DNA of 64,000 nucleotides from Heptranchias perlo (lineage: Eukaryota): positions 1,178,001 to 1,242,000 of the forward strand of contig NW_027138407.1 of the NCBI RefSeq assembly GCF_035084215.1. Direction: 5' to 3'. Below the pieces are notes generated by a model. It saw only the letters and a list, made by a program, of their open reading frames with translations. It was not told the DNA's origin and did not search any database. Of this stretch, positions 25,762-57,644 are shown in pieces. Within the stretch, counting starts at the first letter, position 1; each line of letters starts with the position of its first letter. The translations under genes and the position numbers were made by a program.

Positions 25762-25838
25762 TTACTGTGGTGCTGGGTATAGACAAGGGGGATATTGTTA
25801 TTTGGATGGACCCGGGACAGTGGTGACCGTCACAGCCG
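25762..25838 (+). CDS. NAR-TCR J segment YCGAGYRQGGYCYLDGPGTVVTVTA
   Basis: IgNAR-like DGxGT-V-TV motif; phase-1 GTAAGT donor in frame with the supporting V exon. Confidence 0.9.
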
Positions 25839-26879
25839 GTAAGTGACTCCAAACCGCGCCGTGTTACAAACTGTCCAGGTTAATATTCAACTTCAATTTA
25901 TTATTGTGATCGGTATCACCTCAATCCCCTTCAACGTAAAACACAGCGGTTTTATAAGGGGACATTTCCATTGCAGTTTTCTATTGGGGACTAGAATATG
26001 AACCGGGGGAAGAGGTGTGAGAGCCCCACGGAACAGGCTTGACCCCATCTGGACCATCACTGGTTTAACGGGGGCTTTGGGGATCCCATGAACATCCCGG
26101 ACTCTTTCTCACTCTGATCCCCAGTAGGTGTTGTAAATGAGCACAGATTGTCGACACTCCGGCCTCTGCTCTCGGTGTGAACTGTAACTGAGGGAGCTCT
26201 GCCTGTCCCCGTGAACACGTGAGAGGCTACAGAGCTCTCTCCTGGGCAGCAGATTGCAGTCCGAGCTGGGCAGTGTGAATGAGGTACCGGTCGAGTAAAC
26301 CCAACACTACAGCGGCCCATCCGATAACTGCAGCGGCAGAAAAGCTGGAGCATAACACAGACAGAAGAGATCCGCTGTCGGTCGAGATGGCATTTCATGA
26401 TTGGACACCCAGTGATTGAAATTAATTGCATTTTAGCGAATATTTATTTCAATTCCCTTCAAATAAACAGTCATTTTTCTCCATGTTCCAGGTTTAAGTC
26501 GAAATTTGAAAGCCTCGAACTACAGACACTTTTCTATTTTTAATATCAGTGTTTGAGAGATCGGTTTGCATTAATTTACCTGGAGCCTTGGTTAATGTTC
26601 ATTGAAACAACATTGGGCAGTGAGAGAGTGAGTGCGAGGCGCAAATGTTCTTATAAAGGAGAACAGGAAGAACCGAGGGAACAAATACAGGCTGGAGAAA
26701 AGTCCATTTAGAACCACCAAGAAATAACTCACTGAAAGGGAGTGAAATATCGCCCATTGGGGGCAAGTGGGAATGTGGAGACACCGACCCCTGGGCCGTT
26801 CAAAGTACAATCCGGCACCGGTGGACTTAGATTTACCAGAGGGATGGGTTTCGATTGGGATCCGGTACTTTTCTCAGCT

Positions 26880-28442: not shown

Positions 28443-28753
28443 ATTCCAGTTTATCGATGTCCCAGAGCCCGCCTCGACAAACCTCTGCTGCCGGTGACAC
28501 CGTTACTTTAAGCTGCGAATTTTCAGGGGTCTGTCCGTACACAGTACACTGGTACAGTCAGTCCCCAGGGCAGGCTCCGAAATACCTCCTACAGAGACAC
28601 ACTTCAGGAGCGGGGAATAATGAAAACGCTGCCGGGGGCCGAATTTCTGCTACTATCGATTCTGTCAAGAAAATCAGCCGGTTAAGCATCTCCAAACTAC
28701 AACCGAGTGACTCCGCTGTGTATCACTGTGCTGTGAGTGTGCGCACCGATACA
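28443..28753 (+). CDS. Leaderless NAR-TCR-supporting V-delta exon
   Basis: tcctgcag acceptor; DSSLSMSQSPP..TLSCEFSGVCPYTVHWYSQSPGQAPKYLLQR..DSAVYHCAVS; extra CDR1 Cys; no leader exon seen upstream. Confidence 0.92.
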
Positions 28754-28793
28754 CACAGTAGTTTGAGTCTGCTTAAGTGCTCGTACAATAACC
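28754..28793 (+). other. RSS of supporting V (24-bp spacer)
   Basis: CACAGTA, 24 bp, ACAATAACC. Confidence 0.85.
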
Positions 28794-29060: not shown

Positions 29061-29151
29061 CGATCTTGTTATTGGGTTCAACTGTGATTAACATACGGAG
29101 ACAAAGAAAACCTCACGTTTTGGAATGGAGACAGGCTGATTGTGGAACCCA
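29061..29151 (+). pseudogene. J segment 1 (LTYGDKENLTFWNGDRLIVEP), ORF or pseudo
   Basis: FGxG changed to FWNG; RSS CGATCTTGT-10 bp-AACTGTG; intact GTAAGT donor. Confidence 0.75.
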
Positions 29152-29265: not shown

Positions 29266-29327
29266 GAGTATGGGCGGGGTGATAAGCTAACATTTGGAAC
29301 CGGGGACCATATTGATTGTGCAACGGA
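29266..29327 (+). pseudogene. Pseudo-J 2 (EYGRGDKLTFGTG, frameshift, then TILIVQR)
   Basis: KLTFGTG motif followed by an extra G; no donor and no RSS. Confidence 0.75.
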
Positions 29328-29606: not shown

Positions 29607-29700
29607 GGTTTCTGCCTGTTCAGCTGTTAATGGGCAGGATATTGGAATACCACCACTAAACTAATATTCGTAAGTGAGGCCAGAATTATTTTACAACAGG
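29607..29700 (+). pseudogene. Pseudo-J 3 (WNTTTKLIFVSEARIILQQ)
   Basis: GGTTTCTGC-12-TAATGGG (dead heptamer); FGxG changed to FVSE; GTAAGT donor at 29701. Confidence 0.65.
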
Positions 29701-29925: not shown

Positions 29926-29987
29926 TGGATTAGTGTATGCTGCTAAACTAACATTCGGAGACGGAACTGAAGTGCTTGTAAAGCCAA
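29926..29987 (+). CDS. TRDJ: J segment 4 GLVYAAKLTFGDGTEVLVKP, functional-looking
   Basis: FGDG motif; CACTGTG at 29919-29925 with GGTTTTACA 13 bp upstream; phase-1 GTAAGT donor. Confidence 0.9.
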
Positions 29988-31532: not shown

Positions 31533-31853
31533 AGGACAAAACTCCAAAAGAGCCAACCGTGTCGGTCTTTTACCCGCCCGTGATTCAAAGACGGGACGGG
31601 GAGAGTACTGACACGGCGGCGGTATGTTTGGTATCGGAATTCTCTCCCAAAGAGATTGGGCTCTTCATGGATACAACCACTGTCCCAAAGACCGATGTCA
31701 CGAGATCCAGTCACTTATTAAACAACGGGTATTACAGGAGCTCGGGGTTCCTCTCTTTCAATTCATCCAAACATTCAGTAAATGTCACGTGTGAGGCAAA
31801 ACACAGGGCTCGATCTTTCTACGCAAAAAGCTACAGCCAGGTTTCTGCATCCG
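31533..31853 (+). CDS. TRDC: TCR delta constant region, Ig exon
   Basis: KDKTPKEPTVSVFYP..TAAVCLVSEFSPKEI..VTRSSHLLNNGYYRSSGFLSF..VNVTCEAKH; canonical phase-1 splice sites; matches my recollection of shark C-delta. Confidence 0.9.
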
Positions 31854-31879
31854 GTGAGTAATAAAATATTTCATGAATA

Positions 31880-32340
31880 AAGAACTTGAATTTATAAAGC
31901 GCCTTTTTGAGGTCTCGGGAATTCCCAAAGCGCTTTACAGCCAATGAAGTAGTGTTTGAAGTCTCGTCACTGCTGTAATGTAGGGTAATACAACAGCCAT
32001 TATGCGCACAGCGAGATCCCACAAACAAAGCAATGTGATAATGACCAGTTCATCTGTTCTTGTGACGTTCGTTCAGGGGTCAATATAGACCGGGGCACTG
32101 AGGAGAACACACTTGCTCTTCTTCGAAATACCATGGGGTCTTTCAGGTCCACCAGTGAGGGCAAACGGGGCCTCGGTTAAACATCTCATCCGAAAGACGG
32201 CACCTCCTATAGTGCAGCGCTCTCACAATGCTGGCACTGGCAGTGTCTGTCTGGATAATGGTCTCAAGTCTCTGGAGTGGGATTTTAACCCACAATCTTC
32301 TGATTCAGAAGCTAGATTGCTGCCAATGAGTCTTGGCATG
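31880..32340 (-). mobile_element. Deu-domain SINE
   Basis: Reverse complement of the 975-1425 family. Confidence 0.7.
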
Positions 32341-32516
32341 CTCAATTCTCCAAGTCCGACTGTAATTAATAAAACGGCTAAAGAATCAATACTACAGCTT
32401 TTTTACTACTTCCTCCATTACTACTGCTAATAACGATAACAATAAGTGATAGTAATGACAACAAAAGCAACAACAAAGTAACTTACTCAATAAAGCATTT
32501 AAATGTTTGTTCGCAG

Positions 32517-32588
32517 GCCCCGGCAGAAAGCCTGATTGTGGAAAACGTTCAAATAATTTCAGAGCAGGGACGAATGACGCCCAAACAG
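32517..32588 (+). CDS. TRDC: TCR delta connecting-peptide exon
   Basis: GPGRKPDCGKRSNNFRAGTNDAQT with the interchain Cys; AG/GT phase 1. Confidence 0.88.
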
Positions 32589-32806
32589 GTCAGTACCTTA
32601 TTTTAAATATGTTCAGGTAAAGGCAGAAAGACGGACAGAAATAGGGAGAGATAGATCGATACATGGACATAGATAGTTGTATAATAACCAGCCAGCTGGA
32701 TAGATGAGCAATACATTCCAATTTTGTGGTGCAGACATATTTATTTCAGTTAAATACAGTGGGTTTGTTTAACCAAATCAACGCTTTAATTTGATAATTG
32801 TTACAG

Positions 32807-32916
32807 ATCTACCGAGGGTGAATTTTCTGTCTTTGACAGTGTTAGGATTGAGAGTTCTCTTTTTTAAGAGCGTTGCCTTCAGTGTCCTGCTGACGGCCAG
32901 AGTGTGGTTATTTTAA
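32807..32916 (+). CDS. TRDC: TCR delta transmembrane exon
   Basis: DLPRVNFLSLTVLGLRVLFFKSVAFSVLLTARVWLF*; Arg and Lys CD3-contact residues of TCR alpha/delta; donor after the stop. Confidence 0.95.
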
Positions 32917-43058: not shown

Positions 43059-43120
43059 GACTATTACTGCGCACTGAGCTCCACAGAGGCACGGAGCTGG
43101 GCTGACACTGCATAAAAAAT
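43059..43120 (+). pseudogene. Orphan V 3' stub (DYYCALSS) with 23-RSS, unit A
   Basis: CACAGAG (43082-43088), 23 bp, ATAAAAAAT. Confidence 0.75.
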
Positions 43121-46266: not shown

Positions 46267-46305
46267 GGTTTTTGTACGAGGCTGCCTGCAGTTTGAGTCA
46301 CTGTG
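46267..46305 (-). other. 23-RSS of V6
   Basis: CACAGTG, 23 bp, ACAAAAACC. Confidence 0.95.
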
Positions 46306-46754
46306 AGCTCAGCGCACAGTAATACACGGCGTTATCAGTCAGCTCCAAGGCAGAGATGGTCAGACTGGTGAATCCGTCCGCTTTTGTCAGCACTGAAGAG
46401 AACCGTTCTCCGAGATTATCTGCTTTATATTCGTTACCACCACTATATCTGTGCAGGAGATACTCCGGTCCTTTCTCTGGATGTTGTCGGAACCAATTCA
46501 TGTCATAGCCTGTGTAGCTTGTGGAATAAGTGCAGTTTAATGTCACGGTCGCTCCTTCTTTACGCTTTAACAAAGGCACCGTCTGTGTCACACTGTTACC
46601 ATTAACCAGGACCGCTGCAATAGTCAAAACAAAGGTAAACATGAAATCAGTGGAAAATAAAATATTAAGAAGCATTTTTTCCTGTCACTGAAGAGAAATA
46701 CTCACCCGGGAACAAAATAAAAAGTGTACTCAGCAAATATATCCCCACTAACAT
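46306..46754 (-). CDS. TCR V-alpha/delta segment V6 (leader 46706-46754, V exon 46306-46614), apparently functional
   Basis: MLVGIYLLSTLFILFP/AVLVNGNSVTQTV..TLNCTY..MNWFRQ..DNAVYYCALS. Confidence 0.93.
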
Positions 46755-55418: not shown

Positions 55419-55457
55419 GGTTTTTGTACGAGGCTGCCTGCAGTTTGAGTCACTGTG
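55419..55457 (-). other. 23-RSS of V7
   Basis: CACAGTG, 23 bp, ACAAAAACC. Confidence 0.95.
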
Positions 55458-55906
55458 AGCTCAGCGCACAGCAATACACGGCGTTATCAATCAGTTCCAA
55501 GGCAGAGATAGTCAGACTGGTGAATCCGTCCGCTTTTTTCAGCACTGAAGAGAACCGTTTTCCGAGATTATCTGCTTTATATTCGGTACCATCACTGTAT
55601 CTCTGAAGGAGATACTCCGGTCCTTTCTGTGGATGTTGTCGGTACCAATTCAGGAAGTAGTATGCGTAGCTTGTGGAATAAGTACAGTCTAATGTCACGG
55701 TCGCTCCTTCTTTACGCTTTAATAAAGGCACCGTCTGTGTCACACTGTTACCATTAACCAGGACCGCTGCAATAGTCAAAACAAACGTAAACATGAAATC
55801 AGAGGAAAACAAAGATTAAGATGCATTTTTTTCCATACACTGTACAAAAATACTCACCCGGGAACAAATAAAAAAGTGTCCTCAGCAAATATATCCCCAC
55901 TAACAT
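55458..55906 (-). CDS. TCR V-alpha/delta segment V7 (leader 55858-55906, V exon 55458-55766), intact with YCC
   Basis: MLVGIYLLRTLFYLFP/AVLVNGNSVTQTV..TLDCTY..LNWYRQ..DNAVYCCALS. Confidence 0.9.
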
Positions 55907-56825
55907 GATAGCCATTGCCTGAGCTGAACTGTGTCGCCGCTTTCTTGTGAGAAACTGTCCTTGGATATGAGAGAGAAAGTGTCGGTCGAAAACCCGCTGC
56001 AAAACACAAGCTGCAGCTGGAATTAAAAGCTGGTGAAACGTCATCTTCAGGGGTAAAAGAAGGCGTGGACAAGAGAGCACATGACAGAAGACATCTTCAC
56101 CCACTGATCAGACAGGTGGACATGCAATCGAATGAGGAGGAACTGAACCCTAACTCACACGTTATGAGGAAAGAAAAGCAAAATGCTGGGAATTCTGGAA
56201 ATCTGAAATGAGATCAGAAAATGCTGGAAATACTCAACAAGTCAGTTTGCATCTGTGGAGAGAGAAGAACAGAGTTAACGTTTAAGGTGGCTGGCCTTTC
56301 GTCAGAACCTCCTCATAAGGAAACATTTGGAAAACATCAGTGTTGCCCACATTGTGCTGAGTAGGTGAATAACGTGGATCTGATTCTCGGCAGTTCATAG
56401 ACTGATACAAGGCAGAAGGAGGCCATTCGGCCAATCGTGCCTGCGCTTGTCATTCATTTAGGGGGCTGTCTGCAGATAAAAATTAAAACCGAATGTGTCC
56501 CCGCCGTTCAGTTCATTTCCTGAGGCAACAGATTGTGGGTACAGAATGAGAACTGGTTTTATATTTCTTTCCCTAAGGTTGAAGGTTAAGTTGCGCATTT
56601 AATAAACAGGGATTGGAAGTACCGTCCCATCAAACCTCTGATTCTGAAATTAACAGCACGATTATTGTTATTAATAATAAACATTAACATTCCTGTTCTG
56701 TATTGTCAGTTCAATTGTTGGTGATTTGCCTGTTTTTACACCGACAATCTTCTTTGATAAGTACCGACAGTTCTTGTTTCCCCCACACTGCCCGCTATCC
56801 TGTTGACCTGGTCACATTCCGGCAG

Positions 56826-57070
56826 TGTATTTGTACGAGGCTCCATCTGGTTCCTGTCACTGTGACTCTCAGCCTGCAGTAATATACCACGCTGTCCGAC
56901 CGCCGCAGGTCACTGACGGTGAATTTGCCCTCACTTTTCGAAGCGTCGAGAGATGCGTAAAATGGAGCCACTGACCACTCTGCTCTTTAAAAAGCCCCAT
57001 AAGTAGAGTTGTCGGTCGGGAATGCGGTGCCTTTCTCCCGGGCCTGAAGGTCCAGTTCAAAGTATCAGAG
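56826..57070 (-). pseudogene. 5'-truncated V pseudogene V8 (paralog of V4)
   Basis: ..ASLDASKSEGKFTVSDLRRSDSVVYYCRLR; RSS CACAGTG (56858-56864), 23 bp, ACAAATACA; 5' part replaced by CR1 debris. Confidence 0.85.
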
Positions 57071-57644
57071 TAAGTACAGCACACGAGAAGGCCACGAGGT
57101 CCACCCTGTCTATGCCGGCACTTTGAATGAGCTATCCAATTAGTCCCATTCCCGCGCTCTTTCCCCACAGCCCTGAAATTTTTTACCCTTCAAGTATTTC
57201 TTCAATTCCCTTTTGAAAGTTACCATTGAATCTGCTGTCACCACCATTTCAGGCAGTACATTCCAGATCATTACAATTCGCTGCTTAAAAAAAGGTTTCC
57301 TCGTGTTGCCTCTCGCTCTTTTGCTCACCGCCGTAAGTCTGTGTCCTGCGTTTCCCAATCCTTCTGCCACTGGAAGTAGTTTCCCCTTATTCACTCTGTC
57401 AATACCATTCATGATCCTTCCGAAAGTGTGGGGCCCAGAATTGAAAACAATACTCCAGCTGAGGCGTTACCAGTGTTAATAATGGTGTAGTATAAATCCC
57501 TTGCTTTTTTACTCTATGCCTCTATCAATAAAGCCCAGGATAACATATGCTTTCTTAACAACCGTCTCACGTTGTCCTGCCCACTTCAAATATTTGTTTA
57601 TGTGCACCCCCAGGTGTCTGTGTTGCTGCACTCCCTTCAGGCGG

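Follow-up and report, generated by a model that had tools for sequence, protein, structure and literature searches.

The NAR-TCR of sharks was reportedly described by Criscitiello in 2006. Excerpts of PMC1845163 characterize the NAR-TcRV as a NAR-like V that is preceded by a leader, bears an a-b loop cysteine and lacks the WYRK tryptophan, and the J segments of the shark receptor are described in passages of the same paper and of PMC3457774; its ligands are given as unknown in an excerpt of PMC7615758. The IgNAR antibodies of types I-III carry non-canonical cysteines in CDR3 (PMC12907318 and PMC4622739, both in excerpt). In cattle, the V segment IGHV1-7 carries an 8-bp duplication at its 3' end, which goes with the ultralong CDR H3 (PMC7265228, in excerpt). 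A search of titles and abstracts, by which most subscription journals and the primary nurse shark NAR-TCR papers were not covered, returned none on NAR-TCR J cysteines or on heptamer capture.

The window analyzed here is a stretch of 64,000 nucleotides of Heptranchias perlo, and the positions of the features in it are collected in Table 1. An analysis of the cluster revealed a leader and a NAR-like V with the a-b loop cysteine, a supporting V with a cysteine in CDR1, a D and a J of its own with their RSSs, and a J splice that, as read from the sequence, was in phase with the supporting V. The D of 13 nt contained neither a cysteine nor a stop in any frame. The J heptamer read CACGGTG (CACCGTG on the RSS strand), and the nonamer was one mismatch off the consensus. 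In a protein search, the V was 54-76% identical to V domains of shark and ray gene models, some of which are named NARTCR in table S1 of PMC12227049. No proteins from rearranged NAR-TCR cDNAs turned up in the protein searches. By every sequence feature tested, the J at 25762-25838 belongs to the NAR-TCR family, and the identity proposed in an earlier sequence-only reading of this DNA was supported by the fit of the V, D, J and supporting-V features. We take the TCR constant gene of the cluster to be of the delta type, from its context and a motif; a PDB search with the C exon returned light-chain constant domains only, matches that do not discriminate alpha from delta.

Table 1. Positions of features of the NAR-TCR cluster in the window
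Feature	Position	Strand	Details
Leader exon of NAR-type V	24492-24534	+	ATG...GT donor; MGIFLVFILFICLP; common to all six clusters
NAR-TCR V exon	24684-24967	+	open; a-b loop Cys; without the WYRK Trp; three Cys only
V RSS	24968-25005	+	22-bp spacer
Single D with flanking RSSs	25330-25398	+	D 25358-25370, 13 nt; two 12-spacer RSSs
J RSS in use (predicted)	25723-25761	-	nonamer 25723-25731, 23-bp spacer, heptamer 25755-25761
8-bp tandem duplication GGTGTCAC / GGTGTTAC	25750-25765	+	across the spacer-heptamer border
Long NAR-TCR J	25762-25838	+	77 nt; C-x9-C, then D-G-P-G FR4
Probable former J heptamer TACTGTG	25763-25769	+	now coding; its TGT is Cys1
10-nt identity to part of IgNAR D2 of the H. 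perlo genome	25772-25781	+	possible converted patch or chance
Hypervariable three-codon tip	25778-25786	+	YRQ; ERL and YYE in paralogues; conserved Gly flanks
Cys2 (TGT)	25796-25798	+	three residues ahead of the FR4 Asp
Supporting TCR-delta-type V	28443-28753	+	open; CDR1 Cys; in phase with the J donor
Supporting-V RSS	28754-28793		24-bp spacer; same spacer length in all six clusters
J for the supporting V	29926-29987	+	F-G-D-G; RSS with 13-bp spacer
TCR constant gene of the cluster	31533-32916	+	C 31533-31853 with open frame, hinge 32517-32588, transmembrane exon 32807-32916

Six NAR-TCR clusters were found in the genome, all on one contig, and the same count was obtained by J, V, supporting V and C. 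Each of the six cassettes (G000:C240, approximately 1.16-1.48 Mb) had its own supporting V, J segments and a constant exon about 6 kb downstream; the interval from the supporting V to its J contained no D that could be found. This V-D-J-V-J-C layout resembles that of platypus TCR-mu as outlined in an excerpt of PMC7615758. The C exons of the six clusters were 83-100% identical; a seventh C, 61% identical, was located at C240:791782, and related C were also present in six Mustelus and Cetorhinus gene models. Further J-like remnants followed the supporting V, ahead of the J in use (window 29270-29320, 29085-29150 and 29620-29700); at least one of them was frameshifted in several clusters, and some were intact in the paralogues L026 and L029. 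Elsewhere in the window, conventional TCR V genes with a 23-spacer RSS, some of them broken, occupied both strands (540-873 (+), 14550-18050, 46305-46640 and 55457-57200 (-)), RSS-like remnants with degenerate V ends were located at 43082, 52238 and 62252, and a short-repeat array on the minus strand resembling 22/23-spacer RSSs, with no adjoining V reading frame, spanned 4500-5350.

The J segment itself showed the sequence features expected of a functional J, namely an RSS with CAC, a 23-bp spacer and a nonamer, a G-x-G in FR4, and a GT donor at 25839 which forms the 3' border. Its frame was open and its translation, read from the sequence, was YCGAGYRQGGYCYLDGPGTVVTVTA. The codon of the first cysteine (Cys1, TGT at 25766-25768) occupied nucleotides 5-7 of the J, 4 nt in from the coding end. 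The description of this segment as a 77-nt NAR-TCR J with C-x9-C before DGPG held, and two more 77-nt paralogues with two cysteines were present on the contig. The long J was thus found in the window, L008 and L009, and a short, cysteine-free J of 63 nt was found in L010-L012. An assembly artefact or chance was rejected as the source of the long J, which is not artefactual because there were three independent copies and contigs bearing long-J letters of the L008 type were present in run X1.

The J was compared with an outgroup set of 69 NAR-TCR-like gene models (P0004-P0072), of which 58 yielded 61 J-like motifs from 11 species and 11 were unmatched. Neither C-x9-C nor a cysteine at the Cys2 position was found in any of the 61 motifs from these 11 other species, for which the gene models are automatic and often enter the J part-way, so that Cys2 is better tested than Cys1. 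The other half of the described motif proved to be usual: C-x9-C stood as noted, but DGPG is not unusual, since Asp began FR4 in 54 of the 61 motifs from gene models of other sharks and likewise in the IgNAR J of the H. perlo genome. D-G-x-G is the ordinary NAR-type start of FR4 and no defect.

Comparison of the long and short paralogues revealed how the additional length may have been acquired. The J nonamer and spacer were nearly identical across all six clusters, and an 8-bp unit at the border of spacer and heptamer was single in the three short-J paralogues and double in the three long-J paralogues. The order in the short J was ...GGTGTCAC-TGTG-GTG (one copy with G in place of the first C), and that in the long J was ...GGTGTCAC-GGTGTTAC-TGTG-GTG. 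Past the new heptamer, the long J agreed at 10 of 11 bases with the stretch of the short J that runs from the end of the spacer through the heptamer into the coding start (chance about 1e-4, over 14 registers). One 8-bp duplication accounts for the new heptamer with its change at position 4 (T>G), for the inner heptamer, and for 8 of the 14 extra bases. The remaining 6 extra bases were located in the loop, where the alignment leaves their exact placement ambiguous. The TGT of the heptamer was already in the J frame in the short copies, so it reads as cysteine once it lies within the coding end. At the position of Cys2, the short paralogues had TAT (Tyr) in L010 and L011 and GCT in the third, and Cys2 likely arose by a TAT>TGT change. 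Taken as a whole, the comparison makes it very probable that the long J originated by duplication with capture of the heptamer. The TACTGTG that the sequence-only reading regarded as a cryptic heptamer is present where it was placed; rather than being incidental, it encodes Cys1 and in all likelihood once served as the heptamer of the J.

According to the duplication account, the single-unit state would be ancestral. The 8-bp duplication would have produced a new CACCGTG heptamer 23 bp from the nonamer, at which RAG would cut, and the old heptamer, whose distance to the nonamer is now 31 bp and which was in the J frame from the outset, would stay in the coding end. Six more nucleotides would then have been gained in the loop, and the Tyr codon would have become Cys2. 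That the J was lengthened by the 8-bp duplication, with the RAG cut site shifted, the heptamer turned into a Cys codon and the two cysteines closing a small predicted CDR3 hairpin, is the account we favor with some reserve.

The choice of heptamer by RAG bears directly on the presence of Cys1 in the receptor. The new heptamer retained CAC, departed from the consensus at position 4 only, and was correctly spaced from the nonamer. An excerpt of PMC10536018 states that CAC is required and positions 4-7 are not, RAG making no base-specific contact at position 4. The new heptamer CACCGTG is the predicted RAG cut site. The old heptamer (CACAGTA on the RSS strand) was intact and still good, and no alternative nonamer for it was found at 10-14 or 20-24 bp in a sequence scan. 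RAG cleaves some sites that have no clear nonamer (same excerpt of PMC10536018), so the old heptamer may occasionally be used, which would remove Cys1.

A pairing of the two cysteines with each other is plausible from the germline segments. The V exons of the long-J clusters had no cysteines besides the two canonical ones and that of the a-b loop, and none was located in CDR1 or FR2. As V and D have no spare cysteine, the J cysteines are each other's sole germline partner in CDR3, and in the window cluster the germline segments V, D and J together gave an even number of CDR3 cysteines with no other partner. The variation among the three long copies was concentrated in the tip at codons 6-8, centered between the cysteines at codons 2 and 12: 8 of 9 columns varied there, compared with 7 of 68 over the remainder of the J and 38 of 323 in the DNA that separates D from J, and any 9-base window as variable as the tip arose in 33 of 200000 permutations. 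This pattern is in keeping with a closed hairpin whose exposed tip diversifies, and suggests that receptors retain this part of the J; clustered mutation or conversion could also be the source of the variation. The V of the long-J cluster L008 (G000:C240:1293310-1296591) had an in-frame TGA, and contigs with the letters of its J were nonetheless present in run X1.

Trimming of the J end sets the condition for such a loop. Shark junctions undergo trimming, as excerpts of PMC5931798 and PMC4622739 report, and no trimming figures for the NAR-TCR J were found in the literature. Cys1 is kept only when no more than 4 nt are trimmed from the J end, and in a fully joined IgNAR gene of the H. perlo genome (n=1) 3-4 nt of the J were lost. 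Left untrimmed and without N nucleotides, V, D and J would together give a CDR3 of 74 nt, or about 24-25 residues. With no more than 4 nt trimmed, the J part of the CDR3 of the unpaired NAR V domain would form a disulfide-closed hairpin of nine residues with a Gly-flanked tip, and the V-D-N part would form a separate, somatically variable bulge. Junctions that lack Cys1 would leave Cys2 free and would likely be disfavored. We lean slightly towards a disulfide loop as a regular feature of the expressed receptors.

The same duplication could have taken place with no regular function of the cysteine pair, if Cys1 is usually trimmed away or the old heptamer is cut, which would give a longer J with at most one cysteine. 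The position of Cys1 at nucleotides 5-7 from the coding end and the intact CACAGTA are consistent with such loss, and the invariance of the two Cys codons in the three long copies, expected by chance in 47% of cases for copies likely of one origin, is non-significant. A lone CDR3 cysteine is also found in lamniform NAR-TCR models, one of which is annotated as germline-joined, and in an IgNAR-cluster J of this genome. Against this, Cys2 was found only alongside Cys1 (three of three long copies, none of three short ones), V and D offer the pair no other partner, the nonamer is 31 bp from the old heptamer, and the sole fully joined IgNAR gene seen had lost just 3-4 nt of its J (n=1). We consider a pair with no regular function unlikely.

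Assembled contigs from three runs of one sample, guessed to be RNA, were compared with the clusters. The results showed a splice of leader to V, a splice of C to hinge from this or a paralogous gene, and contigs spanning the unrearranged V-J interval. One V-to-J joint was present, and its ends fit the short-J cluster L012. Among the matches listed, from contigs in which assembly drops rare junctions, there was no joint or loose end at a long J, a result that speaks neither for nor against trimming.

The sequence-only reading had also proposed a germline-fused D-J relic. As a joint made by RAG this was rejected: the cluster has kept its own D with 12/12 signals, the D-J interval of about 390 bp is undeleted as in the short-J clusters, and the J is preceded not by a D-type 12-spacer RSS but by a 23-spacer RSS homologous to that of the short-J paralogues. 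The sequence scan revealed no nonamer 10-14 bp from the inner heptamer of the long J. The 8-bp duplication is the better explanation of the extra bases at the 5' end of the J.

A copying event is a different form of the D origin, in which the 5' part of the long J would stem from a copied piece of an IgNAR-type D, possibly including the 5' heptamer of that D, so that the J is a D-J chimera. The exact 10-nt match to IgNAR D2 lies two bases past a heptamer in the IgNAR clusters L014 and L015, an offset equal to that in the J, and four of the five NAR-TCR D segments likewise have TACTGTG as their 5' heptamer. The match was noticed post hoc, and one in any register arose by chance in 27 of 20000 shuffled and 276 of 20000 Markov sequences. 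It was confined to the window copy, whereas the other two long copies matched any D over 6-nt runs only; the 5' end of the J had no match to the NAR-TCR D. A joint by RAG would leave a 12-spacer RSS and delete the interval, but both RSS and interval are intact, as in the short-J paralogues, and the 3' RSS of IgNAR D2 has a 22-bp spacer, which is incompatible with a J of the 23-RSS type. In addition, GTG follows the (old) heptamer in all six NAR-TCR J copies, unlike in D. A chimera of this kind is thus quite improbable in our judgment. The 10-nt match is unaccounted for by the 8-bp duplication, and a short D-derived conversion patch in the long J, including neither cysteine, is possible.

The direction of the change was examined with trees and outgroups. 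In the tree of the six clusters, long and short copies split at 64% bootstrap with mosaic flanks, and the tree was unrooted for this change; because of this support and these flanks it is undecided on polarity, and the outgroups decide. A V-protein tree was largely unresolved, and three outgroup rows from the wrong domain grouped far off. The IgNAR J of the H. perlo genome had a homologous RSS, in which 22 of 30 spacer and heptamer positions were identical and the TGT of the one heptamer was in the J frame, and 19 of the 61 J-like motifs from gene models of other species read through one heptamer into a J of 50-59 nt. A reverse course, in which loss of the sequence between the 8-bp units shortened an originally long J, is very improbable, as is an origin of the long J from a rearranged V-D-J end (Y-C-x...D-G-x-G) that V replacement left behind: the six-cluster tree leaves the change unrooted and the J peptide aligned weakly with antibody FR3-CDR3-FR4 ends in PDB (E 0.08 and worse), but these PDB matches are non-significant, the shorter single-heptamer J is found both in the IgNAR here and in the 19 readable shark and ray gene models, and FR3 of the V family ends in TACTGTA or similar followed by Lys, not in TACTGTG-Gly.

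Cysteines of CDR3 that are encoded by J or fixed in the germline are not new as such, as a one-cysteine IgNAR J (L019-L023) and lamniform NAR-TCR models already have them. L019-L023 (C1392 and C284) were five IgNAR clusters in which V, D1 and D2 were joined and D3 was able to encode a cysteine; their J had one cysteine (IYGYCSSIGTG), and their V had no CDR1 cysteine. In L016 (G000:C572:14809-18069), all segments of an IgNAR V-D-D-D-J were joined in frame, and CDR1 and CDR3 had one cysteine each; this gene is either germline-joined or an assembly piece derived from a lymphocyte. In L011 (G000:C240:1164588-1167869), a NAR-TCR V was joined in frame to a D remnant, with neither a V RSS nor a 5' D RSS; the 3' D RSS and the short J were intact, so that V and D of this TCR gene are apparently joined in the germline. 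The great white and basking shark NAR-TCR models P0028, P0029, P0004 and P0020 had an identical one-cysteine CDR3, which fits an old germline-joined copy, and a great white NARTCR is labeled 'gj' in table S1 of PMC12227049.

The duplication with heptamer capture would be a simple route to both length and a cysteine: if the TGT of the heptamer is in frame with the J, a cysteine is gained immediately when a small duplication displaces the cut site. The three long two-cysteine J and the three short cysteine-free J, in clusters that are otherwise similar, form a natural experiment within one genome, which could ask whether thymic selection retains a CDR3 disulfide in NAR-TCR. A fixed hairpin on the J side might also inspire scaffolds for single-domain binders. 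Since the gene family is already known and the change is apparently in one lineage only, the reach of the finding is limited.

Compared with known systems, the segment is closest in kind to other NAR-TCR J, with which it shares the V features, an own D and J, the D-G-x-G of FR4 and the in-phase splice to a supporting V with a CDR1 cysteine. It differs from them in length, 77 nt against 63 nt in the paralogues and an estimated 50-59 nt in the 19 gene models, and in its two J-encoded cysteines, against none in the 61 motifs. The likeness to IgNAR consists of a single unpaired NAR-type V, a long CDR3, extra disulfides (predicted here) and germline cysteines in D or J; in IgNAR, three D segments take part and CDR3 is bonded either to CDR1 or to FR2/FR4, whereas here both cysteines come from one J. 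Should the loop form, it would act in the manner of the IgNAR CDR3 loops held by cysteines (PMC12907318, in excerpt). Germline-joined Ig/NAR segments of sharks, as described in part of PMC4622739, likewise have germline-fixed CDR3 sequence, but the window cluster has lost neither an RSS nor intervening DNA, and V-D and D-J rearrangement is still needed. The closest parallel in origin is bovine IGHV1-7, where an 8-bp duplication also affects a segment end next to CDR3 and gives a longer germline CDR3 with a loop shaped by cysteines. If the account given here is true, the J side of a shark TCR has converged with the 8-bp duplication of the bovine ultralong antibodies. The broadest form of the idea, in which an RSS was recruited as coding sequence and now supplies a J-encoded, disulfide-closed "mini-knob" with a germline-diversifying tip in a two-lobed CDR3, convergent with the bovine duplication, is put forward only tentatively. 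In cattle, the duplication at the 3' end of V encodes a strand of the stalk and the cysteines come from a D of 49 residues and from mutation, whereas in the shark the change is at the 5' end of a J of a TCR, an RSS heptamer was probably captured as a Cys codon, and one loop of nine residues is predicted.
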